Of a stretch of DNA of 64,000 bases, positions 31,355 through 63,621 are shown piece after piece (position 1 is the first letter of the stretch; every line of letters starts with the position of its first letter). The position numbers and the translations under genes were made by a program. The stretch is from Desulfatiglandales bacterium. GTDB taxonomy: Bacteria; Desulfobacterota; DSM-4660; Desulfatiglandales; Desulfatiglandaceae. The stretch is from positions 3,744,001 to 3,808,000 of the forward strand of contig OY759599.1 in the NCBI GenBank assembly GCA_963662465.1. The letters run 5' to 3'. Under the pieces are notes generated by a model. The model saw nothing but the letters and a program-made list of their open reading frames with translations, made no database searches and was not told the origin of the DNA.

Positions 31355-32773
31355 TTAGCCCATTTTCGGGTCTGGGACGTTTTGATAGCGCTTAATCTTT
31401 CGAAGCAGTGTTTTGTAGTCAATCCCAAGCCTTCTGGCGGTTTCGCTTTTGTTGCCGCCCGTCTGGATCAGGGTTTGCCGGATGGTTTTTTGTTCGATAT
31501 CGTCTCGGATGCGGCCGATGGTTATTTTGAGGGGTTCTTTGCCCTCATAGGGTTCAGAAAACGGGGAGGGTTTTTCTATTGGCTCATCTGCCGGATGAGT
31601 ATTGAGGGTCAGGTGAACCGGTTCGATGGCCATGTTCTCTTCGCACAACAGCACGCTTTGGCGGATAGCGTTTCGCAGTTCCCGAACGTTTCCCGGCCAA
31701 GCATAGGCTGATAATGCCGCCAATGCTGCTTTGGACAGCCCGGCACATTTTTTGTTCAGCTCCTTTTCCACTTCAGTTTTAAATTTTGTGGCCAGATAGG
31801 GGATATCTTCGGTCCTTTCCCTGAGAGCGGGAATTTTGATGGTAAATTCATTGAGGCGAAAATAGAGGTCCGATCGAAACTTGCCGCTTGCCACATCCTT
31901 TTCGAGGGACTGGTTGGTCGCCGCCACGATGCGACTTGAAATGGGCGTCGGTTCTCCACCTCCCAGGCGTTGGATCTTTCGTTCCTGAATCGTTCGAAGC
32001 AGCGTCTGTTGTACCGAATAGGGGAGATTTCCCACTTCATCCAGGAACAGTGTTCCGCCTTGCGCCAATTCGAAATGTCCGATTTTGTCCGTATGGGCGC
32101 CGGTAAACGCTCCCTTCCGATAGCCGAAAAGTTCACTTTCAATGAGGGTTTCGGGAATGGCCCCGCAATCCACTGCCACGAAAGGCCCGTCCTTGACCCT
32201 GCTCAGATCATGAATGGCGCCGGCCACAAGTTCTTTTCCCGTACCGCTCTCCCCCTCGATCAGGACCGTGAACGCGGTTGGCGCGACCTTTTTTACGTGC
32301 CGAACCAGGGTTTTGACGGCATCGCTTTGCCCCATGCGCTCGTAGAGGGGGGGGCGATCGTTCAGCATGTGTTTTAAGTGTGCTACTTCCTGCTCAAGGC
32401 CCTGTTTTTCCAGTGCCCTTTGAATGGCAAACATGAAATTGTCCGGGTTAACCGGTTTGGTAACGTAGTCGTAGACGCCCATTTTCATGGCTTTGACGGC
32501 GATTTTGATCTCTGCGTATCCCGTTATAATGACGATGGGCGCTTTCGGCGACAGGCGTTTGATTTCTTCGGCAATTTGAAGACCGTCCCGTCCCGGCATG
32601 CGGTAATCCAGCAGGACCAGATCCGGGCGATCATTTTTAAAGCGTGAAAGGGCTTCTTCTCCGTCCCGGGCCTGAAGGACCTCGTAATCCGTTTTTTCCA
32701 GCATTTGGGTTGTCAGCCAGAGGAAATCCTCATTGTCATCCACCAGCAGTATTTTCTTTTTGGGTGTACTCAT
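31355..32773 (-). CDS. sigma54-dependent response regulator (NtrC/AtoC family)
   Basis: REC domain, GESGTGKE, GAFTGA, WPGNVREL, Fis HTH. Start MSTPKK overlaps the stop of the upstream gene. Confidence 0.93.
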   Translation of the reverse strand: MSTPKKKILLVDDNEDFLWLTTQMLEKTDYEVLQARDGEEALSRFKNDRPDLVLLDYRMPGRDGLQIAEEIKRLSPKAPIVIITGYAEIKIAVKAMKMGVYDYVTKPVNPDNFMFAIQRALEKQGLEQEVAHLKHMLNDRPPLYERMGQSDAVKTLVRHVKKVAPTAFTVLIEGESGTGKELVAGAIHDLSRVKDGPFVAVDCGAIPETLIESELFGYRKGAFTGAHTDKIGHFELAQGGTLFLDEVGNLPYSVQQTLLRTIQERKIQRLGGGEPTPISSRIVAATNQSLEKDVASGKFRSDLYFRLNEFTIKIPALRERTEDIPYLATKFKTEVEKELNKKCAGLSKAALAALSAYAWPGNVRELRNAIRQSVLLCEENMAIEPVHLTLNTHPADEPIEKPSPFSEPYEGKEPLKITIGRIRDDIEQKTIRQTLIQTGGNKSETARRLGIDYKTLLRKIKRYQNVPDPKMG

Positions 32774-34749
32774 CCCTGTCCCCCGCAAAACACGGCATCG
32801 CTTATTTCTTCTAATTGCGCCACGCCACGAACCGGATTGGGAAAAAGGGGCGCCCGCACGATGGTCCTCTGGTGAAAACGGGATTGGATTTCCCGAATAC
32901 AGTCTTGCTGCTCGTACCGTTTGAGGGTACAGAACCCGCAATCCGTCGGGGGCAGCACCATATTGACGATAATATGTTCGCACGGTACGTTGGCTTTTAG
33001 AAGGGCGTTCATGAGGCGTTCCAACTCCAGAAAGCCCATCCGTTCGGGAATGGTGACGCTTACGAACCGGGTCTTTTGCGTATCGATCAGCGCTTCCTGA
33101 ATTTGCCGCACATTTTTTGAAAGTGCCAGCGCTTTCTCCGCGGCCCCCGTTAAACGGACCACCCCCTTATATTTCATCAGGAGTCTGAAAAAGACCCGAA
33201 GCCATTGTCTCACCAGGTGGGGCAGTTCCAGAAAACGCAGGAGATGGCCCGTGGGCGAGGTGTCCAAAACAAAAATGTCAAATTGATTTTCCTTTCGTAA
33301 ATCCATCATCTTATCAAGACTCATGATTTCATCCAGTCCGGGCGGGGCCATCTCGAGGATTTCGGTCATCACCTGGCGATCGAATTGGATATCCGTCCCT
33401 TTGGACAGAAAATGGTCAAACAGATCTTTCACCTCCTGCTTAAAGGTCTCTTTGAAATTGAACCATAGCTGTTCCGGATCAATTTCAAGGGCATGGAGGT
33501 TGCTGTCGGCATTAGATGCTGGATTGTATGGTATGGGCGTCAGACGGTTGCCAATGGGGATATCAAAGGAATCGGAGAGGGAATGCGCGGGATCGGTAGA
33601 GAAAAGCAGTATCTTTTTCTCCGGATGCCGATGGGCCAGATGGAGGGCCGCGGCAGCGGCAAGGGTGGTTTTCCCGACGCCGCCTTTTCCCCCGAAAAGA
33701 ATGAATTCCAGGTCGGAATTTAAGGAAACGCAGTCATCGGATTCCGGAACGGATGCTGTGATTTTAACCGGGTTTTCCGATACGGGAAGTCCAACGAGAT
33801 AATCCGCTGTTTTTTTCAGGGCCGAAACACCGTTTATTTCATGGGCAAAAAGGGGGACCTGAATTTTTTCCAAACCGGAAAACGCCGTATCTATTTTTTG
33901 AAGCGCCTGTTTCTGATTTTCCTTTCTGGACCTGCAAAATGGACACGCATCACCTTGCGCCACACGGTTGACAAGCATTTCCCGAACTGGAACGTTTATT
34001 TTTTCGAGGGATTTCAACAATCTTATGGTTTCAAGGACGCTCATCAGTTCCGGAATCAACACGGGAACAAATCGTGTGCTTTCCCGGTTGGAAAGCATCT
34101 TTCGCACCATGTTGATGTCTGAGGAGAGGTTGATTAAAAAAAGGTCGCATTCATCTTTGATATACTTCTTTCCCGTGAAGTGCCTGAACATATAGCGATG
34201 TTTATGCTGCATCAGGTCCATCACGGCAATCCACTTTTTCATCTGGTTTGGCAGGTCAAGCATCCTGACTGTGTGTCCCGTGGGCGCCGTGTCTACAATC
34301 AGGGTGTCGAAGGCGTGTTCTTTTAAGAGTCTCGCCATTTCAATAATGGCCATGACTTCATCCATGCCGGGCAGGGAAAGGTCCAGAAAGTCGGCGATGT
34401 CCTCCTGGTCGAAATACGTCCCCCGTTCCGCCAGTTTCCTGATGACCTCCTGGTTTTTCTCTTTGAAATGGTTCATGAGTTGGGCCGCATCCAGTTCATG
34501 GGCGAAGAGGTTGGACGTGGGGCCTGCCACGGGGGTGATATGATCCCCGATCTGAATGCCGAGGCTGTCCGACAGGGAATGGGCCGGGTCCGTGGAGATG
34601 ATGAGGATTTTCTTCCGTCCACGGGAATTTTCGGCAAGATAAAGGGCCGTCATGGCGGCCATGGTGGTTTTGCCCACGCCGCCCTTTCCACCGAAGAGAA
34701 TGAGGCGGAGGTCTTTGTTTTGCAGGAATTCAGGGATATTGTTCGTCAT
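32770..34749 (-). CDS. Tandem-duplicated ArsA/GET3-family ATPase
   Basis: Two copies each of GGKGGVGKTT, STDPAHSLSD and DT(A/S)PTGH, with CPFC and CGFC motifs. Confidence 0.9.
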   Translation of the reverse strand: MTNNIPEFLQNKDLRLILFGGKGGVGKTTMAAMTALYLAENSRGRKKILIISTDPAHSLSDSLGIQIGDHITPVAGPTSNLFAHELDAAQLMNHFKEKNQEVIRKLAERGTYFDQEDIADFLDLSLPGMDEVMAIIEMARLLKEHAFDTLIVDTAPTGHTVRMLDLPNQMKKWIAVMDLMQHKHRYMFRHFTGKKYIKDECDLFLINLSSDINMVRKMLSNRESTRFVPVLIPELMSVLETIRLLKSLEKINVPVREMLVNRVAQGDACPFCRSRKENQKQALQKIDTAFSGLEKIQVPLFAHEINGVSALKKTADYLVGLPVSENPVKITASVPESDDCVSLNSDLEFILFGGKGGVGKTTLAAAAALHLAHRHPEKKILLFSTDPAHSLSDSFDIPIGNRLTPIPYNPASNADSNLHALEIDPEQLWFNFKETFKQEVKDLFDHFLSKGTDIQFDRQVMTEILEMAPPGLDEIMSLDKMMDLRKENQFDIFVLDTSPTGHLLRFLELPHLVRQWLRVFFRLLMKYKGVVRLTGAAEKALALSKNVRQIQEALIDTQKTRFVSVTIPERMGFLELERLMNALLKANVPCEHIIVNMVLPPTDCGFCTLKRYEQQDCIREIQSRFHQRTIVRAPLFPNPVRGVAQLEEISDAVFCGGQG

Positions 34750-35097: not shown

Positions 35098-36024
35098 TCA
35101 AGAAAGTACCGAACCGAAAGAATCCTTGTTGAATCTTATTTCCAGCAGGTTGTTTCGAATCCGCAGTTCATAGCCTTCCGGGCTGACCCTCGCCCCCAGG
35201 GAAAGATCCACCCGTAATGAAGCACCGATTTTGTGGCATCTGACCGTGACATGGTCGCCGTGAAAATCAAGCTTCAAATCGTCCGGCAAAACCCCTTTGA
35301 TCTCCATGATGACCCGGATTTGTTCTCCTTCGTCAAAAATGTCCACCAGTCGATCCCCATTGGGCAGGAAACGCTCTTTTCTTCCAATGAGCCACCAGCT
35401 GAAGGTGATGATTTCTCCGGTTTCCGGATCGGGTTTTCTTTTTTCAAAGGAGAGGATAGGGCATCCCAGCTCTTTTTCGGCAATGGGATTGATGGTTTCG
35501 CGAATGACCAGCAGGACATGCATATGATTGGGGGCCTGGATTACCTCAGCCAGGCGGTTGATCGTGGAGTGCCCGTTTTCCCAGAGATGCCATAAAATAT
35601 CCCGACCGTCGGAATCCAATTGTCCTGAAATTTTTTGAATGGTTGCCAGATCCACCTTCAGGAAACGAAGCTGCAGTATTTTCTTTTTCCATATATGGAT
35701 CTTGTTGGTGACAAAAAGAACATTGCCGATTCTTGAACCCGTTTTACCCTGATAAGTGATTCGCAGGGTGGGCCTGGTTTTCAGAACGTAATAATGCTTT
35801 TCATCGTGCAGCTTTTGAATGTCTTCAAGGGAAACCTGAAATCGAATCTCGGGTCTCAAAAAAAAGATCAGCCGTTTGTTGGTCAGAAAACACTCCACGG
35901 GTCGCCAGCCGGCCCGATGGGTTTGCCGAAAGCCGCCCTGATCCGTGAGAATGACATCCTCCCCGGGCAGAAACTCAGGTTTTGATCTGGGCAGCGGCGG
36001 CATGCTTCGTTTGGCCTGTCTCAT
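35098..36024 (-). CDS. Gas-vesicle-cluster protein: PH/GRAM-like + wHTH-like + Hsp20-like domains
   Basis: GEDVI..W..CFLTNKRLIF; ILWHLWENGHSTINRLAEVI; VDIFDEGEQIRVIMEIKGV..IRNNLLEIRF. Confidence 0.65.
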   Translation of the reverse strand: MRQAKRSMPPLPRSKPEFLPGEDVILTDQGGFRQTHRAGWRPVECFLTNKRLIFFLRPEIRFQVSLEDIQKLHDEKHYYVLKTRPTLRITYQGKTGSRIGNVLFVTNKIHIWKKKILQLRFLKVDLATIQKISGQLDSDGRDILWHLWENGHSTINRLAEVIQAPNHMHVLLVIRETINPIAEKELGCPILSFEKRKPDPETGEIITFSWWLIGRKERFLPNGDRLVDIFDEGEQIRVIMEIKGVLPDDLKLDFHGDHVTVRCHKIGASLRVDLSLGARVSPEGYELRIRNNLLEIRFNKDSFGSVLS

Positions 36025-36051: not shown

Positions 36052-36077
36052 GGGCAACCACAGGGGGTTGCCCCTAC
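36052..36077 (-). repeat. GTAG-type REP palindrome
   Basis: GTAG-GGGCAACC-CCCTGT-GGTTGCCC; its TAG is the dnaK stop codon. Confidence 0.6.
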
Positions 36078-37786
36078 GCCTCTTTCAAAAGCTCCCGTAA
36101 CTGCCCGGTCAAGTCTTTTATGATGCCGGGGTCGCCTTCAAACAAGGCCTCTTTCAGATCAAAAACAACGTCTTCGATTTTATTTTCATAAGCCTTTGAC
36201 ATGCCCTTTTTTTCCGTCAGGGTGCATTCCGCCGCACGCATCATGCTGTCGGCCCGAATGTTGATCTCGGTTTCTTCCCGTCTTTTCATGTCCTCCAGAA
36301 CAGCGACTTCCGCTTCCCCAATAGCCCTGGCCACTTCTTCGTCGGACAACAGGTGTGAGGCGTCGATTTCGATGCCCGTTTGTTGTTCCGTATAGAGGTC
36401 CGTGGCGGACACGTGAACAATGCCGTTCACATCAATTTCAAAATTGACCTCTACCTTGCCTTTTCCCCTGGGAAGGGGCGGAAGTCCGGTCAATTTGAAC
36501 TGGCCGAGGCTGATGTTGTCTTCGGCCATTTCCCGTTCTCCCTGAAGCACGTGAAAATCCATTTCCACCTGGTTGTCCTCCGCGTTGGTGAAGATCTGTC
36601 CAGCGGAGGTGGGGATGGTGGCATTTCTTTCAATGATTCGGGCAAAAAGGCCCCCTTCCGTTTCAATTCCCAGGGAAAGAGGCGTGACGTCCACCAGAAC
36701 CACATCGTCAATTTCCCCCGTGAGAACGCCGGCCTGAATAGCGGCGCCGATTCCCACCACTTCATCGGGGTTGATGCGGATAAAGGGCTTTCGGTGAAAG
36801 GTCTTTTCCACCATACGTCGTATGGCGGGCATCCGTGTGGCGCCGCCCACCAGAACAACCCGATCGATTTGCTCGGGGGTCAACCGGGCATCTTTCAAGG
36901 CCTGCAGGGTTGGGGGCAGGAGTCCATCGCGCAAATCAGCGGTGATGGCTTCAAAGGTGTCCCGCTCCAGGGAGATGGTTTCCGTGTCTCCCGTATGATG
37001 GGCTATTTTCAGGAAATGCAGGGGGATATCGATGCGCGGTTTGAAAGAAAGGTCCCTCTTGGCTTTTTCCGCCACTTCCTTCAACTGTTCCATTTCCATT
37101 GCGTCGGAACGGATGCGGCGTCCGAATTGATGCAAAATCTGGTCGGATAGATGGGCGACCAGCCTTTCATCCCAGTCGTCCCCGCCTAGCCGGGTATTGC
37201 CGTTGACCGCTTTTACGTGAAAGATGCCGTCTCCCAGCTCCAGAATGGATACATCAAAGGTGCCGCCGCCCAGGTCCCATACCAGAATGGTTTGAATGTT
37301 TTCGCGGTCCAGACCGTAGGCCAAGGCGGCGGCCGTGGGTTCATTGATGATGCGCATCACATCGAGGCCAGCCAGGATTCCCGCCTCCCGGGTAGTTTGG
37401 CGTTGGGCGTCAGTGAAATAGGCGGGCACGGTAATGACTGCCTTTTTAACTGGCATTTTCAGGTAGGTTTCCGCATCGGTTTTTATTTTTCGCAGGATAA
37501 AAGCGGAAATTTCCTGGGGGGAATAGGCCTTGCCATTAAGGGAGACCCTGTGATCCATACCCATATATCGTTTAATAGAGCTGATGGTATTGGCTGGATT
37601 GGCCGCCGCCTGTCTTTTAGCCACTGAGCCCACCAGGCGATGTCCGAGGGCTGTTTCCGCCACAACGGAAGGCGTCAGATTTTCGCCTTCAGCGTTGGGA
37701 ATGACCCTGGCCCGTCCGTTTTCTATTACGGCAGCCACCGAATAGGTGGTGCCCAGGTCTATGCCGATTGCTTTATCCATGTCCAT
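36074..37786 (-). CDS. dnaK: Hsp70 chaperone DnaK (cluster-specific paralog)
   Basis: GIDLGTT, TVPAYF, INEPTAAALAYG, DLGGGTFD, LVGGATRMP, DVTPLSLGIE motifs; short C-terminus. Confidence 0.92.
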   Translation of the reverse strand: MDMDKAIGIDLGTTYSVAAVIENGRARVIPNAEGENLTPSVVAETALGHRLVGSVAKRQAAANPANTISSIKRYMGMDHRVSLNGKAYSPQEISAFILRKIKTDAETYLKMPVKKAVITVPAYFTDAQRQTTREAGILAGLDVMRIINEPTAAALAYGLDRENIQTILVWDLGGGTFDVSILELGDGIFHVKAVNGNTRLGGDDWDERLVAHLSDQILHQFGRRIRSDAMEMEQLKEVAEKAKRDLSFKPRIDIPLHFLKIAHHTGDTETISLERDTFEAITADLRDGLLPPTLQALKDARLTPEQIDRVVLVGGATRMPAIRRMVEKTFHRKPFIRINPDEVVGIGAAIQAGVLTGEIDDVVLVDVTPLSLGIETEGGLFARIIERNATIPTSAGQIFTNAEDNQVEMDFHVLQGEREMAEDNISLGQFKLTGLPPLPRGKGKVEVNFEIDVNGIVHVSATDLYTEQQTGIEIDASHLLSDEEVARAIGEAEVAVLEDMKRREETEINIRADSMMRAAECTLTEKKGMSKAYENKIEDVVFDLKEALFEGDPGIIKDLTGQLRELLKEA

Positions 37787-38399
37787 TGCTATCGCTTTCC
37801 TGAAACTGGTTGAGGGTCTGAAGGATTTTTTCTTCCGTGAAGGGTTTATCGATAAAGCTGTGAACCCCTTTTTCCTTGGCGTCCACCATCCGGTCCTCGC
37901 TGCCGTATGCGCTGATAATCACCACAAAGGTTTCAGAGCATTTTGCCTTGATGACGGGAAGCATGTTCATTCCGTCGCCATCGGGCAGTTTCAGGTCCAG
38001 CAAGATGAGATCGGGTTTTTTTCCCAGGGATCGAATGCCCTCACGAATGGTGTTGGCGGTGCATACATTGTAACCCTTTTCCTTCAAGGCGATCGACAGG
38101 AGCCAGCACAGATCTTCCTCATCGTCTACGATCAGAATATTTCTGATCTTTTTTTTGTGAATGAGGGGAGGGGCTTGTTCGGCCTGTTTTCTTCTCAGCC
38201 GTTCTTTTTCTCGCTTTTCAAAATATGGTTTTAATTCTTTCAATTCTTCGGGCTTGCGCCACCCGGAAAGGCCGCTTCGCCATACAAGGGCCTCGTCCCG
38301 CTTGATGATTCCCTTGAGTATCCAGCTCTTGAGCCTGGCATGATACACCGCGCTGTAGGTGTCCGCTCCTCGCCTCACATCGTATTTGAATTCTCGCAT
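37773..38399 (-). CDS. Response regulator with N-terminal GYF_2/DUF4339-like domain
   Basis: G.I..DEALVWRSGLSGW....L.EL followed by REC (LIVDDE, LLDLKLPDGDG, KPF). Confidence 0.78.
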   Translation of the reverse strand: MREFKYDVRRGADTYSAVYHARLKSWILKGIIKRDEALVWRSGLSGWRKPEELKELKPYFEKREKERLRRKQAEQAPPLIHKKKIRNILIVDDEEDLCWLLSIALKEKGYNVCTANTIREGIRSLGKKPDLILLDLKLPDGDGMNMLPVIKAKCSETFVVIISAYGSEDRMVDAKEKGVHSFIDKPFTEEKILQTLNQFQESDSNGHG

Positions 38400-38408: not shown

Positions 38409-39143
38409 CTAATGCATGGGTAGCGAAATGGTAAAAAGTGCCCCTTTTCCCCGTTGACTTTCGACGCTGATGGTACCGCCATGACTGACCACGGTCCCAT
38501 AGGTCACGGACAATCCAAGACCGATTCCGGAAGCCTTGGTGCTGAAAAACGGGTCGAATATGCGAATAATATCCTCTTCCGGGATGCCGAGCCCCGTATC
38601 CTTGATTTTGATCACGAAATAGCGTCCTTCAATCCCGGTCTCAAGGGTCATGACGCCCCCGTCGGGCATGGCGTCCAAGGCGTTGATCATGACGTTTGAA
38701 AAGACCCGGGTAATCTGTTCCCGGTCCACGTTGATGACCGGGAACCCCGGGCAATAGGCTTTGCGGATGCCGACCTGTTGGGCGGTAATCTTGGCTTTGA
38801 TGGAATCCAGCGTGTTTTCCAGGATGCCGTTGATGTCATGGGGTTGAATATTGAGCTTGGGGGGCCTTGCACAGTTTAACAATTCGGTAATCAAAAAATT
38901 GATCCGTTCCGTATTCCGAACCAGGATTTCGATATGTTTGGCCCAGGGACTATCCTTAGGAAAGGCTTCCCTCAGTTGTCTGACCGACATGGACACATTG
39001 GTCAGGGGATTTCGGATTTCATGGGCGATGCTGGCGGCGATTCGCCCTGTAAAGGCAAGCCTCTCTGAGAGAACGAACTCTTCCTTTCTGGTTTTTCGTT
39101 CTTCGCTGTCGGTTGTAACGGGTGCGTCCATTTTTTCCCTCAT
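38409..39143 (-). CDS. Cytoplasmic histidine kinase with no sensor domain
   Basis: AHEIRNPL about 40 aa from the start, then HATPase boxes. Confidence 0.88.
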   Translation of the reverse strand: MREKMDAPVTTDSEERKTRKEEFVLSERLAFTGRIAASIAHEIRNPLTNVSMSVRQLREAFPKDSPWAKHIEILVRNTERINFLITELLNCARPPKLNIQPHDINGILENTLDSIKAKITAQQVGIRKAYCPGFPVINVDREQITRVFSNVMINALDAMPDGGVMTLETGIEGRYFVIKIKDTGLGIPEEDIIRIFDPFFSTKASGIGLGLSVTYGTVVSHGGTISVESQRGKGALFTISLPMH

Positions 39144-39157
39144 ATGAAAGTGGCGGG

Positions 39158-39880
39158 TTAGACCGATGCCCTGATCTCCGGAATTTTTCCAGCTGAAACA
39201 GGACTGCGCCAGCCACATTCGGCGCAGCCGTTTTCAAGCAGTATTTGAACCAAATCAAGCTTCCCGCATTGGGGGCAGGTCTCTCTTTCTTTTTCCGAAA
39301 GGTCCTGAACATCGAAACCTGAATCGAGAATGGCGGCTTCCAGGTTTTTGCGCAATTGCCGAATATGCAGCGATGTCAATCGGCGCCACCGGTTCCCTTT
39401 CAACAGAAGATGCAGTTCCCGTCGCGGTTTTTTCCCGGGAGATGCTTCTTCCTCACTGTGCGCCAGGCCCCGTATTTCGGCAAGGGGCGTTTCGAACAGG
39501 ATCTTTTGGAAATCTTCATGATAAAGGATCAAACGCCCGGGCGTCAGGTAAAAGCGGCCGTACTGCCAGGTATTGAACAACCCGTCGGTCGAGTGGCAGG
39601 CGCCCGGTACTTTGAGGAGTACTTTTTCCCCGGCGATCAAATCATCCTGCTTCTCCTGTCTGTTTTTCCGTTCCCACTCCCTGGTTTTCTCGTCCCACGC
39701 CTGCATGACCCCGTATTTCAGCATGGTTTCCATGCCTGCCAACGCCGCCCGGAGATTGACGCCAATGAGCGGAATGCCCGCAACAGATACGATGAGGTCC
39801 GCATGAATGACCAGGCCCTTGTCCAGAACGCGATCCAGGAGGTCGACTAACGTTGCGTGGGTATTTCGTTTGGGGATCAT
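39158..39880 (-). CDS. GvpA/J/M-family protein fused to a PH/GRAM-like domain and a Zn ribbon
   Basis: LVDLLDRVLDKGLVIHAD..VSVAGIPL..LRAALAGMETMLKYG; then GRFYLTPGRLIL; then CPQC-x13-CAECGW. Confidence 0.85.
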   Translation of the reverse strand: MIPKRNTHATLVDLLDRVLDKGLVIHADLIVSVAGIPLIGVNLRAALAGMETMLKYGVMQAWDEKTREWERKNRQEKQDDLIAGEKVLLKVPGACHSTDGLFNTWQYGRFYLTPGRLILYHEDFQKILFETPLAEIRGLAHSEEEASPGKKPRRELHLLLKGNRWRRLTSLHIRQLRKNLEAAILDSGFDVQDLSEKERETCPQCGKLDLVQILLENGCAECGWRSPVSAGKIPEIRASV

Positions 39881-40983: not shown

Positions 40984-41295
40984 CTAATGATCTCTATCTT
41001 CCCACCTTTCCGGGTTGATGATTTGATCCAGTATATCGTCCACAATGCTGTCCAAACCGTCCCGGACCGACTTAACCGATTCCGTGATGCCCTGTTCGAT
41101 CTTCATTTCTTCGATGGCCGTGTCCAGGTCCATCAGGGCTTCACCCAGTCGATTGGTTTCCTCTTCCGTCAGGGTTCCCCCTTCCATGCGTTTCAGGGCC
41201 TGCAGCCTGAGCGCGTCCTTGATGATTTCCACCAGGGCCACCACCAGGCCCAGCACCCCGTGCTTGAGGTTTTTTTCGTCAATGTCGATGGACAT
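40984..41295 (-). CDS. gvpK: Gas vesicle protein K
   Basis: GVLGLVVALVEIIKDALRLQALKRMEGGTLTEEE..RLGEALMDL. Confidence 0.92.
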   Translation of the reverse strand: MSIDIDEKNLKHGVLGLVVALVEIIKDALRLQALKRMEGGTLTEEETNRLGEALMDLDTAIEEMKIEQGITESVKSVRDGLDSIVDDILDQIINPERWEDRDH

Positions 41296-41354: not shown

Positions 41355-41729
41355 CTAGTCACTGATCACTTCCTTTGCCTTGGCACTGATCCAGCCGCAC
41401 CAGGGACAGCCGGTGGTGATAAGATCCTCCAGTACAACCCTTTTTTCGCATTGGGGACAGTGCTCCTTGGCGATGACCGCGTCTTCCCAGGCGGGGGTTT
41501 TCAGACTGGTCCCCGAGGGAAATTCCAAACCGTATTTGGCGGCGGTTTCAAAGGACGCCAGCGCCGCCCTGATTTTGATGCCCAGCAGTTCAACGCCCAC
41601 CACCGATACGGTGATGTCCGCATTGATGACCAGGCCTTTGTCTAAAATTCTGTCGATGACGTCCGCCAGGCCGCCGGCCCTTTCGTCTCGGGAAGGTTCC
41701 ATGGCCATTGCGTTAGTTTCTCCCGCCAT
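41355..41729 (-). CDS. gvpJ: Gas vesicle protein J with C-terminal Zn ribbon
   Basis: LADVIDRILDKGLVINADI.VSV.GVELLGIKIRAALASFETAAKYGLEFP; CPQC-x13-CPWCGW. Confidence 0.9.
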   Translation of the reverse strand: MAGETNAMAMEPSRDERAGGLADVIDRILDKGLVINADITVSVVGVELLGIKIRAALASFETAAKYGLEFPSGTSLKTPAWEDAVIAKEHCPQCEKRVVLEDLITTGCPWCGWISAKAKEVISD

Positions 41730-52902: not shown

Positions 52903-52918
52903 TGCATTTGTCGTGCCA
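52903..52918 (-). promoter_or_regulatory. sigma54 promoter of the gvpA operon
   Basis: TGGCACGACAAATGCA (GG-N10-GC) about 57 nt before the gvpA start; AT-rich spacer and palindrome CACCCAA-N7-TTGGGTG (53016-53036) further upstream. Confidence 0.72.
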
Positions 52919-55893: not shown

Positions 55894-57723
55894 TCACTCG
55901 TCACTTTCTCTGACATTGAATTCCAGCTTGAACTTTTTGTCATCCTCCTGGGATACACACCACAGCTCCAGGGTACCCACCTCCGTTATCCGGGTTTCGA
56001 GGGTGACCGGAACGATGGCGCCGGGTTCGCCTTCCAGACGGGTTTCAAGGGTGGCAACCGGTTCAATTTCCCCTTCCCAGTCTTCAGCAACCGTGCCCAT
56101 GGCATCGTGATGCCGGGTGTTGGACCCCAGGAATTCAAATTTAACCGGTTCTCCCACCACCAGCCCGAATTCTCTGTTTTGAAGCGCCATTTCCGTCCCT
56201 TCTTCCATGCCGAAGGGCGCTACGCACAGGGCTTTTACGGGAGCGGGAATCCCCGGCACCGCCGGCATCGCCGCTTCCACGCCGATATAGTAGGTTTTGG
56301 CAAGACCGCCGCGGATGCGGATCCCGTTGCCTTTTCTCGCCAGGCCGTAGTAGGCCGCTCCCCGGGCAACGGCCAGATCAAAATCAAGGCTTTCAACCTC
56401 TCTGGGTGCGGGACAACCGGCCTCGGCGGTCCAGGAGGAGAGGATTTCCAGGATCCTGTTTCTCAGGCCTCGCGCTTTCATGACGCCGCCGTTAAAAAGA
56501 ATGGCGGTAGGACAAACAAAGTCGCCCCGAGCTGATCCGGAAGTGTCCTGCTGGTTCAGAAATTGGGCCAGATGATGGCTGATGGCGGGATCCGACGCAT
56601 AGGAGAGACCCATCTCCCGCATGCCGGTTCGGCGGTCCTCCCGGGGGCGGGAATCCCTATTGCATTTCGGGAAAAACCCCTCTTTCAGGACCGATTCGAC
56701 CTGCTCTCGCGTTAATTCGGTTTTGATAGCGCCGCCAATGAGTTTGCTGCCCCGCCCCAGGATGGCAATGGGATAGGATTGTGCTTCTACATTTGAGAAA
56801 AGATGCTCTTTGGCCGATCTGCAACCATAGCAAAGTCCCCGCATCTGGTGCGCATTGAGCTTCTGACCCGTTGCGGCCATTTTGCCGGCGATGTCGTAGG
56901 CCAGGGTCAGGTCCATGTTGTCCCCGCCTACCAGGAGATGCTTTCCGACGGAAATCCGTTCCAGGTTTAAATCGCCCTGAGCTTCGGACACCTTTATGAG
57001 GCTCAAATCGGTGGTTCCGCCGCCCACGTCCGTCACCATGATCAGATCATCTACTTTGATTTTATTTCGCCATTTGCCGCGCGTACTGTCGATCCAGGCG
57101 TAAAATGCAGCCTGGGGTTCCTCCAGCAGGGTGGTTTTGGGAAGTCCCGCCATTTCAGCGGCTTCGATGGTGAGGTTTCGGGCCACTGCGTCAAAGGAAG
57201 CGGGCACCGTCAAAAATATCTCCTGATCCTCCAGGCGCAACCGGTTGTCCTCGCGGGCAAAGGTATAATTCCAGCTTTCCCGGATGTGCCCGAGAATCGC
57301 TGCGGACGCCGCTACCGGCGAGAGTTTTTCCCGGTCGTCGGGTCCTTCCCATGGCAGAATCGGTTTGTTTCGGTCCACGCCGGTGTGACAGAGCCATGAT
57401 TTGGATGATGCGATCATGCGCATGGGGATTTCGGCGCCCCTATCCCGGGCAAAGGTTCCGACGGCCATGTTGCTCTGGGGGTCCCATGGCAGTGCCAGGC
57501 CGCCTTCCGCAACATCATGGGGACCCGGCAGCAGTATGAATGAGGGCAGAATGCTCTTTTCCCCCAGAGAGCCCGATGCCACCAGTTGAGGGATTTTGAA
57601 AATTCGAATATCGGGTTCCCTTTGATCATTTACAGCAGCTTCCGTATAGGCCACCACGCTGTTGGTGGTGCCCAGGTCAATGCCCACCACGTAGGTGGGA
57701 TTTGGATTGGTTTCGTTGGTCAT
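55894..57723 (-). CDS. Atypical Hsp70-family protein
   Basis: GIDLGTTNS, SSKSWLCH, TVPASFD, EEPQAAFY, DVGGGTTD, AVARGAAYYG motifs. Confidence 0.9.
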   Translation of the reverse strand: MTNETNPNPTYVVGIDLGTTNSVVAYTEAAVNDQREPDIRIFKIPQLVASGSLGEKSILPSFILLPGPHDVAEGGLALPWDPQSNMAVGTFARDRGAEIPMRMIASSKSWLCHTGVDRNKPILPWEGPDDREKLSPVAASAAILGHIRESWNYTFAREDNRLRLEDQEIFLTVPASFDAVARNLTIEAAEMAGLPKTTLLEEPQAAFYAWIDSTRGKWRNKIKVDDLIMVTDVGGGTTDLSLIKVSEAQGDLNLERISVGKHLLVGGDNMDLTLAYDIAGKMAATGQKLNAHQMRGLCYGCRSAKEHLFSNVEAQSYPIAILGRGSKLIGGAIKTELTREQVESVLKEGFFPKCNRDSRPREDRRTGMREMGLSYASDPAISHHLAQFLNQQDTSGSARGDFVCPTAILFNGGVMKARGLRNRILEILSSWTAEAGCPAPREVESLDFDLAVARGAAYYGLARKGNGIRIRGGLAKTYYIGVEAAMPAVPGIPAPVKALCVAPFGMEEGTEMALQNREFGLVVGEPVKFEFLGSNTRHHDAMGTVAEDWEGEIEPVATLETRLEGEPGAIVPVTLETRITEVGTLELWCVSQEDDKKFKLEFNVRESDE

Positions 57724-57752: not shown

Positions 57753-58493
57753 TCAAGGAATCTCCACTTCCGCGGGTGCAATAACGCCGGGGTCCGGAGA
57801 ACCGGAAAGGGTCGGCAGGTCAAATTTTCCCACCCGCCAGCCCCGGTGTTCCAGAGCGCCCTTGAAGGGCGGTTCTCCGGATACATTGCCCGTCAGCTTT
57901 ATAGCGGAAGCGTCAAAGCCTTTTTCCACCGTAATCTCTTCACCTTCTTCCCGATCGATAACAGCTTCCAGGGACAGATATTTTTTCAGGGCCTTTTGAC
58001 AGTTCTCTTGAATATTTCGAACAGCCGCGCCGATCTGAGCGTCTTCATAGCCCTTAAGGTCTTCCGCCAGAAAATCCACCAGGCGCCCCTCTCTTTGAAG
58101 CAGGCTCAACAGATGCAAGGACCTGCGCTGGTCTTCCCTGGCGCGGACTTCTTTTTCCTCCGGCGTTGGGCGGTGCGGCTGGGCTTTCGTCACTTTTTTC
58201 GGAGTGGGCGCAACGGGTTTGGGCTGCGCCATTTTTGCCAGGCTTCGCCCAATGGAAGCGCGCAGGGTCAACCAGAGGAGGATTCCAAAAATCACCAGGC
58301 TTCCCCCAAGGACCTGCAGGGATAGTATTCCACCGTTTTCCAACAGCAGTATTAACCCTTCCAGGCCAGCTTTCCCCGGAATTTGCTGCTGAATTTTCCA
58401 GTAACTGAAGCCGGCAAGGGCCAGACCCAGCAGAAGAAGCCACACGAATATCCAAAGGGATAATTTGCTTGAGATTTTCTTTTTCGTTTCCAT
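57753..58493 (-). CDS. DUF2760-family membrane protein
   Basis: Two TMs, then LLSLLQREGRLVDFL.ED...DAQIGAAVR..HRGWRV..IAPAEVEI. Confidence 0.85.
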   Translation of the reverse strand: METKKKISSKLSLWIFVWLLLLGLALAGFSYWKIQQQIPGKAGLEGLILLLENGGILSLQVLGGSLVIFGILLWLTLRASIGRSLAKMAQPKPVAPTPKKVTKAQPHRPTPEEKEVRAREDQRRSLHLLSLLQREGRLVDFLAEDLKGYEDAQIGAAVRNIQENCQKALKKYLSLEAVIDREEGEEITVEKGFDASAIKLTGNVSGEPPFKGALEHRGWRVGKFDLPTLSGSPDPGVIAPAEVEIP

Positions 58494-58548
58494 GATTGCA
58501 TCCTTTCTCTTTGCTGAGGTCCTTAAACCCATAAATTCGTCTCAACGT

Positions 58549-59985
58549 TCAATAATTAATGGCCAGACCTTTGACTTTTCGAAGCAATGTTTTGTAATCC
58601 ATTCCCAGCTTTCTAGCCACCCGGCTTTTGTTTCCATTTGATTCCTTCAAAACCGTTCCGATGATTTGTTTTTCCACGGCTTCCACATGGGCGTTGACGA
58701 TTTCCTTGAGGGATTTTCCACCATTAAGCGGCTTTCCGGAAACGGCGTTTGTATTTGTTGATGCAGAGGCAAAAAATGTTTTGTCCCCACATTGCGTGCT
58801 GAACATTAAGTGCTGTCTTTGAATGGGCACATTTTCTTCACAAAGGAGTACGGCCTGGCGGATCACGTTTCGCAGTTCTCGCACATTTCCAGGCCAATGA
58901 TAGGCATCCAGCGATAGCAAGGTTTCCTTGGAGAATCCACCGCATTTTTTGTTCAGCTCTATCTCCACCTCATCCACGAACTTCTTGGCCAGATAGGGGA
59001 TATCCTCCACTCTGTCCTTGAGAGCCGGCATTTTCAGGGAAAATTCATTTAATCGAAAGTACAGATCCGATCTGAAATTCCCCGATTTTATGTCCTTTTC
59101 CAGGGACTGGTTGGTGGCGGCAATGATTCGGACCTTCACGGGCACGGAATTTTTGCCGCCCAACCGCCTGATCATCCGTTCCTGAATCGCCCGAAGAAGT
59201 TTCTGTTGCACGGCATAGGAAAGATTTCCCACCTCGTCCAAAAAAATGGTCCCACCATGGGCCAGCTCAAAATGGCCCGGTTTGTCACTGTCCGCACCGG
59301 TAAAAGCGCCTTTCATGTAGCCGAACAGCTCGCTTTCGATGAGCGTTTCGGGAATGGCGCCGCAGTCCAGGGCCACAAAAGGGCCATCCTTTACGTGGCT
59401 CGCGTTGTGAATGGCGCGGGCAACCAGCTCTTTGCCCGTACCGCTCTCGCCTTCTATGAGAACCGTGAACAGGGTGGGCGCTACCTTTTCCACGTGACGG
59501 ACCAGTTTTTTGATGGGATCGCTGTTCCCCATCAGTTTGTAGAGGAGGGCGCGTTCATTCAGAACCGTTCTCAGATGTTCCACCTCCTGCACCAGATCCT
59601 GTTTTTCCAGGGCCCGTTTGATAGTAAACAGGAGATCGTTGTTGTCAATGGGCTTTGTAACGTAATCGTAAATGCCCATTTTCATGGCCTGGACTGCGGA
59701 ATCAACTTCCGCATAGGCCGTGATCATGACGATGGGCACCGCCGGTATTTTCCGCTTTATCTCAGCACTGACCGTTAATCCGTTCTCCCCGGGCATCCGA
59801 TAGTCCATGAGTACCAGGTTGGGGATATCCCTTTCCAGAAAGTTCAGCGCTTCATGGCCGTTCACCGCATCAATACATTGGTATCCTATGGCGCCCAGGA
59901 TATTCCCCATGGCCCATCGAAAGTCTTCGTCGTCATCCACCACCAGTATTTTGATTTTGGGTTTAATTTCCGTTTCAGCGGTCAT
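58549..59985 (-). CDS. sigma54-dependent response regulator, paralog of 31355-32773
   Basis: REC domain, GESGTGKE, GAFTGA, WPGNVREL, HTH ..LGMDYKTLLRK. Confidence 0.93.
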   Translation of the reverse strand: MTAETEIKPKIKILVVDDDEDFRWAMGNILGAIGYQCIDAVNGHEALNFLERDIPNLVLMDYRMPGENGLTVSAEIKRKIPAVPIVMITAYAEVDSAVQAMKMGIYDYVTKPIDNNDLLFTIKRALEKQDLVQEVEHLRTVLNERALLYKLMGNSDPIKKLVRHVEKVAPTLFTVLIEGESGTGKELVARAIHNASHVKDGPFVALDCGAIPETLIESELFGYMKGAFTGADSDKPGHFELAHGGTIFLDEVGNLSYAVQQKLLRAIQERMIRRLGGKNSVPVKVRIIAATNQSLEKDIKSGNFRSDLYFRLNEFSLKMPALKDRVEDIPYLAKKFVDEVEIELNKKCGGFSKETLLSLDAYHWPGNVRELRNVIRQAVLLCEENVPIQRQHLMFSTQCGDKTFFASASTNTNAVSGKPLNGGKSLKEIVNAHVEAVEKQIIGTVLKESNGNKSRVARKLGMDYKTLLRKVKGLAINY

Positions 59986-60077: not shown

Positions 60078-60079
60078 GT

Positions 60080-61615
60080 TTAGGGGTGAATCCCGCGTAA
60101 TTCATGAGTGTTTACCGGTAGTTTTACAGTGATTCGGGTCCCCCCCTGTTCTCCGCATTCCACAGTGATGTTTCCATGGTGTTGTTCCACGATGGCGTGG
60201 CAAATGCTGAGACCCAGACCCGTGCCGCCATCCTTGGTGGTAAAAAACGGGTCAAATATCCGCTGTCGGTACTCCCGGGGGATCCCCGGGCCATCGTCCG
60301 CAACGCTGATTTCCAGCATTTGATCCCCTGTGGGGGCCACCCTGGTTTCAAGGCTAATGGTTCCTTTTCCGGGCAGGGCCTGAATGGCATTTTGGATCAG
60401 ATTAAGGCAGATCTGCCCCAGTTTTTCCTCATCGCCCGGGATCTCGGGCAGCCCCTCTTCAAGCCGCTTTACAAAGGTAATACGGGAAGAATCCACCTCC
60501 AGTTCAGCCATACGCAGCATTCTTTCAAACAGTGGGTTCAGGTCCACGGATTTCAAGTTAAGGCGGTCCGGTCGGGCAAAGGCCAGCAATTCGCTGATAA
60601 GCTTGCCGGCCCGCTGACTGTTTCGATGAATGACCTGGAAATTTTCAGCGACCAGCCCTTCAGGGTTCATGTTTTCCATACAGAACTGGGCACATGAGCT
60701 GATGACCGCCAGTGGATTCCTGAGTTCGTGAGCAAGTCCCGCTGAAAGTTGTCCCAGGGAAGACATTTTTTCCGACCGGATCAGCATCTCTTCCATGCGT
60801 TTCTGTTGCGAGATATCCCGAAGAAAATTGAAGGTAGCCGGTCTGTCCTGCCATGTGGTGGCCACTGTCTGGCACACCACCCATAGAAAAGAACCGTCCT
60901 TTTTCCGTATTCTGAATTTGTTTTCGGTGGGCAAATGCTTCCCTGCCATTCGCTGACGGTATCGTTTTAGGGCTTCGGTACGATCATCGGGATGAAGCAG
61001 GGTTGAGAGGGGCGTATCCAGAATTTCGTCTCGGGAAAAACCCGTCAGTTCCACTCCCCTTTTATTGACAAACTTCAAGAGACCATTTTGAAGGACCACG
61101 ATGGCATCCGTGGAGTTGTTGACGATATTTTTATACTTGATCTGGGATTCCCTCAACCGAAAGGTTTTTTCCTTGAAGTCCCGTTCCAACTCAACAATAC
61201 GGTTTCTCAGTTCCTTCAGAACGGAGGTGTTTCTTAATGTCTGCTCCCTGTTGTTCAGTGCCCGTTGAACCGTCAGTTTGAGTTCCATCATATCGAAGGG
61301 TTTTATCAGGTAATCAATGGCGCCGTAGCGAAAAAATACCTTTTTGAGACCTCCCAGTTCAATGTTCCCGGTAATCATGATCACTTGAATATAGTGATCA
61401 ATTGCCTTGATCTGCTTGAGTGCTTCCACACCGCCCATTTTCGGCATGGCCACATCCAGGATGGCCACGTCGATGGGGTGCTTTTGGGTAAGCGCTACCG
61501 CCTCTTCGCCATCGCATGCGAAAAACAGGCTGTAGGCATCGTTTCGAAGCAGCTTTTCAAGCATTTTTCGAATACTCGGTTCGTCGTCGGCGATCAGGAT
61601 GTTTTTTTCAGCCAT
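60080..61615 (-). CDS. Hybrid kinase REC-PAS-HisKA-HATPase
   Basis: ILIADDE/ILDVAMP REC, PAS (LHPDD..RKKDGSFLWV), AHELRNPL. Confidence 0.92.
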   Translation of the reverse strand: MAEKNILIADDEPSIRKMLEKLLRNDAYSLFFACDGEEAVALTQKHPIDVAILDVAMPKMGGVEALKQIKAIDHYIQVIMITGNIELGGLKKVFFRYGAIDYLIKPFDMMELKLTVQRALNNREQTLRNTSVLKELRNRIVELERDFKEKTFRLRESQIKYKNIVNNSTDAIVVLQNGLLKFVNKRGVELTGFSRDEILDTPLSTLLHPDDRTEALKRYRQRMAGKHLPTENKFRIRKKDGSFLWVVCQTVATTWQDRPATFNFLRDISQQKRMEEMLIRSEKMSSLGQLSAGLAHELRNPLAVISSCAQFCMENMNPEGLVAENFQVIHRNSQRAGKLISELLAFARPDRLNLKSVDLNPLFERMLRMAELEVDSSRITFVKRLEEGLPEIPGDEEKLGQICLNLIQNAIQALPGKGTISLETRVAPTGDQMLEISVADDGPGIPREYRQRIFDPFFTTKDGGTGLGLSICHAIVEQHHGNITVECGEQGGTRITVKLPVNTHELRGIHP

Positions 61616-61800
61616 GGAGATTTTTTTCAAGAAATTGGGTTCAGGTCCGTCGACGCCCGTTCGGGCACAAGGGAAAACCGAGGTTTAAATTTTAATAACT
61701 TGCCCTGCAAAATGGCTGCAACATGCTGGAATAGCAGATTTAGTCAGCTTTTCGAGAGGACCAGGAAATAAAGAATGCTACTCCAGTTTTGTCGAGGATG

Positions 61801-62475
61801 TCAAGAAGAGATGTGCGAGACCATATAGTCGGACAATATTGCCTGTTTTTCCCGCAGCCCTGGCGTGTACAGGGTTTTGAAATAATCCCGCACCTTTTTG
61901 ATTTCTTTGAGTTCCAAAACATCTATGTCGTCTTCAAGATAAGACTTCACTCGATGGAAAGCCCCCATAAACAGAACGCCGCGACGTTCCAGGGTTTTGT
62001 TGATGCTTTCAGCCGTAAAGCGATCCCGATCCGCCATTAAGCGATCGCCGGTGAGACGCTTCCGAAAGGTTGACATTTCTGCTTTCCCATGGGAATTTTC
62101 CCGGGAAAGTTGGCGTGTTCGTTGGAGTTCCTGTTGAAGTAGCGCAAGGTCTTCGGTTTTTTTGATGATGCCGCCCCGGTTCATCAAGTCAAGGACAATC
62201 CGGTAATTGATACTTCCCCTTTTCACGCCTTCCCGGATAATTCTGTGGGCGAGTTCCCCGCCCACGGGAAGGCCGTCCTGAAATATTTCCAGACCATTGG
62301 CATCCATTTTAGCAAAATAGTCGGAGATTCGATCCCAGAACAATGCCACGGTTTTTTGGTGGTTTTGCCATTTACTTTCCCCGCATATTTCAAGTCCTTT
62401 TTCATTGGCAACGGCTGCCAGGCTTCCCAGGTCCGCTTCCTCGTGAATGATCGGAACATAAATCAAGCTTCTCAT
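61801..62475 (-). CDS. Conserved-looking hypothetical protein
   Basis: LIYVPIIH..DLGS, FQDGLP, RDRF.A..I, LFMGAFH motifs; AAGGAG RBS before ATG 62475. Confidence 0.65.
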   Translation of the reverse strand: MRSLIYVPIIHEEADLGSLAAVANEKGLEICGESKWQNHQKTVALFWDRISDYFAKMDANGLEIFQDGLPVGGELAHRIIREGVKRGSINYRIVLDLMNRGGIIKKTEDLALLQQELQRTRQLSRENSHGKAEMSTFRKRLTGDRLMADRDRFTAESINKTLERRGVLFMGAFHRVKSYLEDDIDVLELKEIKKVRDYFKTLYTPGLREKQAILSDYMVSHISS

Positions 62476-62532: not shown

Positions 62533-63621
62533 TCAATGCTTGCCCGTTGGCATTTTTATTTCCAGCATGCCATTCTTATAGGACCAAGTCATCTGATCGG
62601 CAGTTGCTTCGCGGGAAAGAAGAATTTCTTTCTGGTATTTTCGGTTGAGCCCGTCAGCAGTAATATTCAGGATGTCTCCCTTGATTTCGATGTGGACATC
62701 CTTTTCATCGATCCCGGGCATTTCAGCCACCACATTGATTTCTTCCGGTTCATCAAAGACGTCGATGATGGGTTCGCGCATCTCTTCCACCACCGGGCCC
62801 TTGGGTGTCTTTTTAATCGTCTTCTTAATATTCCCGAAAGGCTGAACCGATGGCCTGCCGTTCGCCATGGTGCCCACCCGGACACCGTAAACACCTTTCA
62901 GATCCTGGAGTCCCTTGATTTTATCAAGGCCACTGAAATCAAATTCTCCCGATTTAGATAATCCTTCGCCCTTTTCCGCCAGTTTTGACGCCGCTTCAAT
63001 CAAGTCTCCCAGCCCTTTAAAAAGGCCGCCAAGTCCAAAGCCCGCATCCACTTTTTTTTCATCCATGTCCGTTCCCTCCTGCTTAGTGTCTGTTTGTTGC
63101 TTATGGGTTATTTCCCAAACCCCTTCTTTTTCCGCACAGTTCAGATCGTTTGCTTCAAGAATCGCTTTGAGTCCCTTGACAAGTCCATATCCGGCCAAAC
63201 TTGAAAGAACTGGGACAGCGCTCACGACGGATGTGGATAGGTCCAATGATGCGCTCGCGATGGTTCCCAGCCCGGCCAGAATGCCCGAAGGCGTAAGGGC
63301 CTTCATCATATGGGTATTGATGTCATTAGCAAAATCATCAGCGTTTTCCCCGATTTCAGTCATGAACAGCGCGAATCGACCCCTGTCTAATTGAGAAAGT
63401 TCTCGAAATTTGGATAGACCGATCAGTTGAATGGCTTTGAGTCGATTTAAAAGGTCTTCCGACGGGATGCTTTGTCCCGCTTCGATCCTCATGACCGTGC
63501 TTCTCGATACGCCGAGTGTTTTGGCCAGGTCCGCCATGGACATGCTCCCGAACCGCTGCCGTATTTCTTTCAGGGTTATGCCACAGTTGTCACGCGTTAC
63601 CTTTTGGGGCATTTCTTTCAT
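62533..63621 (-). CDS. XRE-type HTH fused to an Hsp20 (GvpH-like, archaeal-type) domain
   Basis: LKEIRQRFGSMSMADLAKTLGVSRSTVMRIEAG; C-terminal GVYG.RV..PFGNI..REPIIDVFDE..VAEMPG..YKNGMLEIK. Confidence 0.85.
   Translation of the reverse strand: MKEMPQKVTRDNCGITLKEIRQRFGSMSMADLAKTLGVSRSTVMRIEAGQSIPSEDLLNRLKAIQLIGLSKFRELSQLDRGRFALFMTEIGENADDFANDINTHMMKALTPSGILAGLGTIASASLDLSTSVVSAVPVLSSLAGYGLVKGLKAILEANDLNCAEKEGVWEITHKQQTDTKQEGTDMDEKKVDAGFGLGGLFKGLGDLIEAASKLAEKGEGLSKSGEFDFSGLDKIKGLQDLKGVYGVRVGTMANGRPSVQPFGNIKKTIKKTPKGPVVEEMREPIIDVFDEPEEINVVAEMPGIDEKDVHIEIKGDILNITADGLNRKYQKEILLSREATADQMTWSYKNGMLEIKMPTGKH

Follow-up and report, generated by a model that had tools for sequence, protein, structure and literature searches.

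An expanded gas vesicle cluster of a sulfate-reducing bacterium with a candidate CDC48 and Hsp20-type module for quality control of shell proteins

The gas vesicle cluster of Serratia sp. ATCC 39006 (Prodigiosinella), gvp/gvr, encodes GvpA isoforms, several GvpF proteins, GvpG, GvpK, GvpN, GvpH and a sigma54-type regulator with a kinase and a receiver (Tashiro et al. 2016, PMC4982088), and its GvpV to GvpZ are listed as proteins of unknown function (PMC4982088, PMC5601083). A two-domain ArsA homologue of about 640 residues and an Hsp20 have also been placed in gvp operons, including one of a deltaproteobacterium, and a chaperone role was proposed for the Hsp20 (Castillo and Saier 2010, PMC2963123). 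GvpF is a chaperone of GvpA (PMC11445434), and the proteotoxicity of GvpA has been published (PMC12848028). We describe a gas vesicle cluster of a Desulfatiglandales bacterium (assembly GCA_963662465.1, contig OY759599.1, forward-strand positions 3,744,001 to 3,808,000; this whole stretch of 64,000 nucleotides is the window below), in which 30 genes between window positions 31355 and 63621 all lie on the minus strand. We consider it fairly probable that this cluster carries a conserved module for quality control of shell proteins, acting through an Hsp20-type adaptor of the GvpH type and a dedicated unfoldase of the CDC48 family.

The locus is a genuine gas vesicle cluster and represents an expanded subtype. 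It belongs to a sulfate reducer of the Desulfobacterota whose 8.16-Mb genome, a single contig, encodes DsrA and, in a genome-wide search, yielded this gvp locus only. Searches of Pfam and NCBIfam bore out, with some refinements, what an earlier note had read from the DNA alone, namely two gvpA genes (encoding identical proteins), gvpN, four GvpF/L genes, gvpG, gvpO, gvpJ and gvpK, together with CDC48, DnaK, two Hsp70-like genes plus DUF2760, a J-domain fusion, two DnaJ-type zinc fingers, two Hsp20-like domains, a double Get3/ArsA ATPase, two kinases and three response regulators. GvpN scores 348 bits against TIGR02640 (cut-off 267) and GvpA 124 bits against NF006874 (cut-off 100). Furthermore, GvpA aligns over its full length with the solved shell proteins of Anabaena and B. 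megaterium (8gbs, 7r1c), and by our own count 53 of 67 residues are identical, end to end, to Anabaena GvpA. Every accessory class that Serratia requires (two further GvpA-like proteins, three GvpF, G, K, the activator and the kinase) has a representative here, without one-to-one orthology being implied. Two labels of the earlier note stand in part. Its 'GvpA/J fusion' is indeed a fusion, and joins a domain closest to GvpM with a GRAM/PH-like domain and a zinc ribbon. Its 'GvpC-like' protein of 516 residues is so by position and coiled-coil character only, matching no GvpC family in Pfam or NCBIfam, and the atlas searches named no family for it. Its list lacked a 224-residue protein with a predicted TIKI fold, a 229-residue coiled-coil gene and a 104-residue gene after gvpN.

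Gene content, conservation and motifs are matters of observation here. Of 60 relatives, 10 have a GvpN that passes its cut-off. Loci were examined in 11 relative genomes, several of them on short contigs; 10 of these showed CDC48, 8 the GvpF/L protein fused to a J-domain (GvpF-J), 8 the 224-residue protein, 7 DnaK and 6 the Get3-like ATPase. A draw of 400 genomes from the phylum gave gvpN in 31, and CDC48 occurs genome-wide in 28 of these 31 as against 16 of the 369 gvpN-negative genomes; in the flanks fetched for those 16 CDC48s and for five second copies no gvp gene was found, and in a quick tree they form separate groups. Within the gvp loci fetched from the 31 genomes we found CDC48 in 26, a GvpH-type Hsp20 in 26, the 224-residue protein in 21 and a sigma54 activator in 23, with GvpH directly before CDC48 in 23 of the 24 genomes where both were seen. 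A profile of the 224-residue protein matched 28 of the 31 gvpN-positive genomes and one of the 369 others, which has gvpA-family genes and the same gene neighbours. Because this profile was built from gvp loci and the genomes are kin, the counts for this protein and for the phylum speak for linkage, not for independent events. The association claimed in the earlier note is upheld for CDC48, the GvpH-type Hsp20, the Get3-like ATPase and the activator, which are kept beside gvp genes across the phylum, and for DnaK with GvpF-J, whose place beside gvp genes is conserved in one subtype.

Clusters come in two layouts. The commoner one in the Desulfobacterota is Serratia-like, a permutation of the Serratia gene order (PMC4982088 notes Desulfomonile tiedjei), and the other is the larger layout of this window with gvpO, GvpF-J and DnaK. 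Breadth outside the phylum comes from three plasmid loci and one metagenome contig. Plasmids of Methylosinus and Methylocella carry gvpH, the 224-residue gene and an annotated CDC48 consecutively inside gvp clusters; two other plasmid gvp clusters showed no CDC48 within the stretches examined. A broad taxonomic scan with GvpF-J, which is 88% identical to its closest named relative, from a Desulfatiglandales bacterium, returned 17 matches: 4 true loci (two left out of the counts as duplicates) and 13 to the J-domain only. Short contigs of relatives in one metatranscriptome cover CDC48, gvpN and gvpA, although such contigs cannot show transcription or operon structure.

The CDC48 of the cluster scores 970 bits against TIGR01243 (cut-off 803) and shares with Thermoplasma VAT and archaeal CDC48 (PDB 1cz4, 5g4f) the N-D1-D2 architecture and intact, aromatic pore-loop motifs in both rings. 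It differs from them in being bacterial and inside a gvp cluster, and in having a clade-specific basic patch that is predicted to bind an Hsp20-type domain. CDC48/VAT couples to the 20S proteasome through a C-terminal docking motif. Here the C-terminal tail is unconserved among gvp-linked copies, and the host genome has no 20S alpha/beta pair, its sole match to PF00227 being a protein of 184 residues; a different peptidase partner would therefore be needed, or none. In the quick tree the gvp-linked copies form two supported groups (19 and 16 rows, with two rows unplaced), and the linked/unlinked label changes 2 times as against 19 for shuffles. As a separate observation, several CDC48 genes without gvp neighbours (L130-L133, L139-L144, L152) are followed by similar-sized, co-oriented genes in several genomes, and these neighbourhoods are possibly another conserved bacterial CDC48 operon.

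Modelling of the complex predicts that the GvpH-type Hsp20 domain docks on the CDC48 N-domain via residues specific to gvp-linked CDC48s. Three runs with the N-domain and the GvpH-type protein scored 0.80, 0.81 and 0.81, the best of three controls scored 0.00, and at least 65% of the contacts were common to the runs, with a predicted local distance difference test (pLDDT) value of 60-62 for the partner. Of 157 solved complexes 116 come up to the mark for such models, and of 215 mismatched pairs 2 do; these figures are a rough guide here, as our own alignments were used. No PDB entry is common to the 23 Hsp20 matches and the best 60 of 91 matches of the CDC48 N-domain, so recall of a solved pair by the model is not evident, if still possible. 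On the side of CDC48 the predicted interface has K23, R27 and K59, which face acidic residues of the Hsp20 domain. All 35 gvp-linked CDC48s have R27 and K59, versus 5% and 14% of 22 unlinked ones, and across 19 interface positions the consensus is kept at 0.74 in linked and 0.30 in unlinked copies, compared with 0.67 and 0.36 at other N-domain positions (three rows without a full N-domain were left out). Since other Hsp20-like domains of gvp loci retain part of the same CDC48-facing surface, several of them may recruit CDC48. The closest relatives of the GvpH-type domain are archaeal Hsp20 proteins. Canonical oligomeric small heat-shock proteins have an alpha-crystallin domain followed by a C-terminal I-x-I tail. 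GvpH-type proteins have the domain but not the tail, all 27 of those aligned stopping a few residues past the last strand.

The 224-residue protein belongs to no Pfam family, was given no family by the atlas searches and has no sequence-level match to TIKI, EreA or ChaN. Its model (pLDDT 90.3) predicts a ChaN/EreA (TIKI) core fold over its whole length. In a fold search of 48,161 chains the top matches were ChaN (2g5g; Z 9.0, root-mean-square deviation (rmsd) 4.6, 163 aligned) and HopBA1 (5t09; Z 8.2, rmsd 4.1, 150 aligned), and the next matches from the superfamily were PMT, EreC (6xcq), BcR135 and RRSP domains at Z 5.0-6.2. Scores of Z 7-8 can come from a common arrangement; here the leading rows are one superfamily. 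Foldseek alone gave no match with E < 0.001. ChaN and HopBA1 are not known to be enzymes. Besides the predicted fold, the likeness to the TIKI/EreA/ChaN group lies in two histidines, H11 and H174, which follow the first and a late core strand, are invariant in 28 of 28 sequences and lie in motifs found in 239 and 240, respectively, of 240 homologues. Active TIKI enzymes use a 2His/2Glu catalytic set (PMC6254334), and where they have glutamate this family has an invariant Gln-Asp-Gly (Asp67). Because an aspartate stands at the likely glutamate position, hydrolase activity is put forward as a hypothesis.

This core of CDC48, GvpH and GvpY is widespread, and a model cluster probably has it already under other names. 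Peptides derived from published primers, together with gene order, suggest that Serratia GvpZ is probably a CDC48. Read in frame, the downstream primer of the gvpZ deletion finds its best match to any of the 30 window proteins in CDC48, at residue 456, where the second ATPase domain starts (score 33, next 21). In 7 of 36 gvp-linked CDC48s the motif at this place, some 260 residues before the C-terminus, is identical to the primer's peptide. The same primer has an exact match inside the CDC48 of a metagenome locus (L158, not Serratia itself) whose order, ArsA, gvpA2, gvpK, small gene, gvpA3, 224-residue gene, activator, GvpH, CDC48, is that of Serratia; a second match (L157) falls in a 129-residue frame that has no hit to any window protein. 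If GvpZ is a CDC48, then what the published gvpZ deletion took out was N and D1, and the allele probably still encoded D2, the second ATPase domain. On weaker evidence, Serratia GvpY is probably the 224-residue protein: a primer peptide of only six residues finds its best match among the 30 window proteins in the first strand of that protein (score 20, next 16), and both genes share the position before the activator. The GvpW primers gave no recognisable ArsA peptide, and the homologue and plasmid searches did not turn up the Serratia GvpY and GvpZ sequences. Database annotation may already call GvpZ a CDC48. The smaller accessory set that the earlier note ascribed to Serratia is therefore not what we find, since gvrABC and gvpH are present there and, very likely, a CDC48 (GvpZ) and a TIKI-fold gene (GvpY) as well. 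Compared with Serratia, the subtype in this window adds gvpO, GvpF-J, DnaK, separate zinc fingers, PH-like fusions, a second activator and kinase, and a fused Get3-like ATPase.

Some of these additions have distinctive features of their own. The cluster DnaK exceeds the cut-off of NF001413 (702 vs 648), falls below that of TIGR02350 (687 vs 823) and lacks two features of the two housekeeping copies, their 24-residue insert and their acidic tail. GrpE genes lie elsewhere in the genome, outside the cluster; a fourth DnaK-like gene (G000:C1:7625983-7627937), also without the insert, adjoins a GrpE-like gene. The J-domain motif HPD is present in 19 of 19 GvpF-J fusions. The ATPase scores 489 bits against TIGR00345 (cut-off 135), and its best solved relatives are Get3/TRC40 proteins (PDB 5zme, 3zq6, 3ug6), from which it differs as a bacterial fused dimer in a gvp cluster whose clients are putative. 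CxxC motifs occur in both of its halves, and among 16 relatives longer than 600 residues all have at least one such motif and 12 have two. An identity as arsenite-pump ArsA was ruled out by its score against TIGR04291 (236 bits, cut-off 650) and by its neighbours, which are gvp and regulator genes, not ars genes. In the family of the GvpM-like fusion 5 of 11 members match GRAM, and the N-terminal PH-like domain of the 308-residue Hsp20 protein is related to that of the GvpM fusion (profile probability 95.7%, with model and fold search).

A further set of chaperone-like genes in the cluster is best set aside. The DUF2760-Hsp70-Hsp70 triple is an independent conserved module and a passenger here; we rejected it as part of the gvp system, and the earlier note's view of these proteins as gvp chaperones falls with it. 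Neither DUF2760 nor the Hsp70 pair occurs in any of the 31 phylum-wide gvp loci, the triple lies 126 kb from gvpN in one close relative (G004), and three fetched copies have no gvp neighbours. DUF3731 is found in 9 of 10 congeners, in four of which no gvpA was found (genomes 75-97% complete). At the locus of relatives the triple is whole in one, partial in two and missing from two others, where the activator abuts gvpA. Truncated second copies of the triple genes were seen within the gvp locus of two relatives.

The sigma54 circuit postulated in the earlier note is supported by an activator conserved beside gvp genes and by a box conserved upstream of gvpA, and such a circuit in gvp clusters is already published. 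If at most one mismatch to the sigma54 consensus is allowed, 20 of 39 first gvpA copies have a box in the 250 nt preceding them, and none lies in the control stretches before gvpN (0 of 48, including overlapping duplicates), CDC48 (0 of 34) or gvpG (0 of 24). Over the whole window the pattern shows no enrichment, with 55 found and 65 expected, and its weight comes from the conserved position before gvpA alone. Scans of the window for sigma70 promoters and terminators gave chance-level counts. Short gaps and an ATGA overlap suggest co-transcription of the cluster. Just downstream of it, a gene of no Pfam family (window 30412-31107) has its own sigma54-type box (31059-31073), and at window 22999-24457 a sigma54 activator is apparently split into overlapping receiver and AAA-HTH frames.

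Table 1. Features of the gas vesicle cluster, in window coordinates.
Feature	Position	Strand	Basis
XRE-type helix-turn-helix (HTH) fused to GvpH-type Hsp20 protein; predicted CDC48 adaptor	62533..63621	-	Pfam/NCBIfam, complex model
Likely internal start of stand-alone 177-aa GvpH	63066	-	GGAGG 8 nt before internal ATG
224-aa protein, no Pfam family; predicted ChaN/EreA (TIKI) fold; probable Serratia GvpY orthologue	61801..62475	-	
Hybrid REC-PAS histidine kinase, GvrB-like by position	60080..61630	-	Pfam
NtrC-family sigma54 activator 1, GvrA-like	58549..59985	-	Pfam/NCBIfam
DUF2760 protein, passenger triple	57753..58532	-	
Divergent Hsp70-like, 609 aa, passenger triple	55894..57723	-	
Hsp70-like with DUF3731, 933 aa, passenger triple	53070..55871	-	
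Sigma54 (-24/-12) promoter-like box, 59-73 nt upstream of gvpA	52904..52918	-	
gvpA copy 1, 67 aa	52642..52845	-	
gvpA copy 2, identical protein	52370..52573	-	
Coiled-coil protein, weakly related to next gene; kept after gvpA in this subtype	51493..52182	-	
516-aa coiled-coil protein at gvpC position	49700..51250	-	
Stand-alone DnaJ-type zinc-finger protein	49255..49623	-	Pfam
gvpN AAA+ ATPase	48253..49167	-	NCBIfam
104-aa coiled-coil gene at gvpV position, no family match	47918..48232	-	
gvpF/L	47146..47898	-	Pfam
CDC48/VAT-family double AAA+ ATPase; probable Serratia GvpZ orthologue	44986..47118	-	
GvpF/L fused to J-domain with HPD motif	43932..44951	-	
gvpF/L	43160..43912	-	Pfam
gvpG	42875..43114	-	Pfam
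gvpO	42502..42768	-	Pfam
258-aa protein, C-terminal DnaJ-type zinc finger	41713..42489	-	Pfam
gvpJ with C-terminal four-cysteine ribbon	41355..41729	-	
gvpK	40984..41295	-	Pfam
gvpL/F with N-terminal extension	39961..40965	-	
GvpM-like domain fused to GRAM/PH-like domain and zinc ribbon	39158..39880	-	
Histidine kinase without sensor domain	38409..39218	-	Pfam
GYF-like domain and receiver domain	37773..38399	-	Pfam
Cluster-specific DnaK	36074..37786	-	
Three-domain protein: PH-like, helical middle, Hsp20-like	35098..36024	-	
Fused-dimer Get3/ArsA-family ATPase, two CxxC motifs	32770..34749	-	
NtrC-family sigma54 activator 2; start overlaps ATPase stop (ATGA)	31355..32773	-	

Three smaller observations concern the window and its relatives. 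Arrays of 7-base repeats lie between gvp genes and within gvpL (window 39885-39959, 40720-40755, 41299-41330, 42842-42874, 43130-43154 and 20500-20538). The stretch at 1-6540 is of lower GC content and holds a CHAP-domain gene, an IS91-like transposase and a DruA-like/transposase-associated frame. Several relatives have a second, divergent gvpN (about 50% identical) adjoining a gene of 370-395 residues of unknown function (L039/L040, L043, L047, L050, L122).

We propose the following scheme, in which the folds and the GvpH-CDC48 contact are predictions and we infer the substrates and the direction. A two-component sigma54 circuit likely drives gvpA. The GvpH-type Hsp20 domain would dock on the N-domain of the dedicated CDC48, which would unfold misassembled or spent GvpA, GvpJ or GvpM, and these clients might also be attacked by the TIKI-fold, GvpY-like protein, a candidate hydrolase. 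In this subtype, the J-domain fused to the GvpA-binder GvpF may hand shell monomers to a private DnaK, and the fused Get3-like ATPase may shield hydrophobic segments. The module would probably raise yield and limit proteotoxic stress without being strictly required for assembly.

Several observations weigh against this proposal. The substrates, the co-transcription and the vesicles are putative, and confidence in the partner in the complex model is modest. The genomes are related, so the counts overstate independence, and the quick tree leaves a single origin of gvp-linked CDC48 unproven. One gvpN locus (G373) lacks GvpH-CDC48 at the usual place, the CDC48 of another genome (G091) is unlinked, and the Get3-like ATPase, GvpF-J and DnaK are found in 16, 9 and only 3 of the 31 phylum loci, respectively, many of them on short contigs. 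Anabaena and B. megaterium clusters are without gvpH (PMC4982088) and work in E. coli. Finally, native Serratia deletions of gvpH, gvpY and gvpZ kept vesicles (PMC4982088, PMC10344784), whereas in E. coli with the Serratia cluster the same deletions reduced or eliminated signal and opacity (PMC10344784). Genes that Serratia can do without, and that E. coli needs for full signal, are more in keeping with quality control than with core assembly. The chaperone-assisted assembly and disassembly line of the earlier note thus stands as far as chaperones conserved beside gvp genes go; with deletions of probable orthologues leaving vesicles in the native host, an obligatory line is too strong.

The same deletion data bear on an unlikely alternative, that the module mainly dismantles vesicles for reversible buoyancy, with GvpH marking collapsed or surplus shells, CDC48 extracting GvpA and the TIKI-fold protein cutting it. 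The missing steady-state defect in native deletions (PMC4982088) would fit, as would pore loops aromatic in both rings and a TIKI-fold gene that is the accessory most tightly linked to gvp and lies between gvpH and CDC48 in two methanotroph plasmids, but the deletions lowered, not raised, the E. coli signal (PMC10344784), and the peptidase role is putative, with an aspartate at the probable position of the catalytic glutamate. We think it less likely still that an archaeal-type Hsp20-CDC48 pair with DnaK is a general stress module co-regulated with flotation and not specific to Gvp proteins. Import as a block would fit both the archaeal affinity of the Hsp20 and a DnaK without the insert of the host copies; against this, the J-domain is fused to GvpF and keeps its HPD throughout, a PH-like domain is common to the GvpM and Hsp20 fusions, and the genes remain interleaved with gvp genes through rearrangements in two layouts. 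The earlier note's other suggestion, a Gvp-based structure made for something other than flotation, seems very improbable to us. The host is a sulfate reducer, and the PH-like, zinc-ribbon and GYF-like domains are foreign to the model clusters; nothing else points that way, while GvpA matches Anabaena GvpA over its full length, the gene classes needed in Serratia have homologues here, and E. coli given the cluster of another sulfate reducer, Desulfobacterium vacuolatum, formed vesicles that could be detected (PMC10344784).

A bolder reading is conceivable, if doubtful at present. GvpH-type Hsp20 domains may serve as adaptors dedicated to CDC48, the prokaryotic equivalent of UBX cofactors, and would form, together with a GvpY peptidase, a proteasome-independent, extract-and-cut route of shell recycling. 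Hidden in Serratia as gvpH, gvpY and gvpZ, it would have escaped notice because one ATPase ring survived in the native gvpZ deletion. The presence of ArsA and Hsp20 in gvp clusters is already published; the GvpH-CDC48 docking model and the GvpY and GvpZ assignments were not found in the literature searched. Specifically, cdc48 is absent from the main text of PMC2963123, and DnaK, the J-domain, a docking model and the TIKI-fold gene are absent from the passages of it that were available, as are Hsp20 and ArsA from those of the review PMC9501494. No description of CDC48, DnaK or a TIKI-fold protein in gvp clusters appeared in the titles and abstract openings searched, a scope that excludes subscription papers.

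These proposals touch on how cells handle a very hydrophobic shell protein and whether vesicles get dismantled. There is a practical side as well, as GvpA toxicity limits acoustic reporter genes and the Serratia cluster is used for ultrasound reporters. Given the GvpZ and GvpY assignments and the specific predicted GvpH-CDC48 interface, the proposals are testable in existing plasmids and strains. If true, GvpH-type proteins would be the first adaptor class for bacterial CDC48, and the cluster would offer a candidate chaperone kit for better heterologous vesicle yield.

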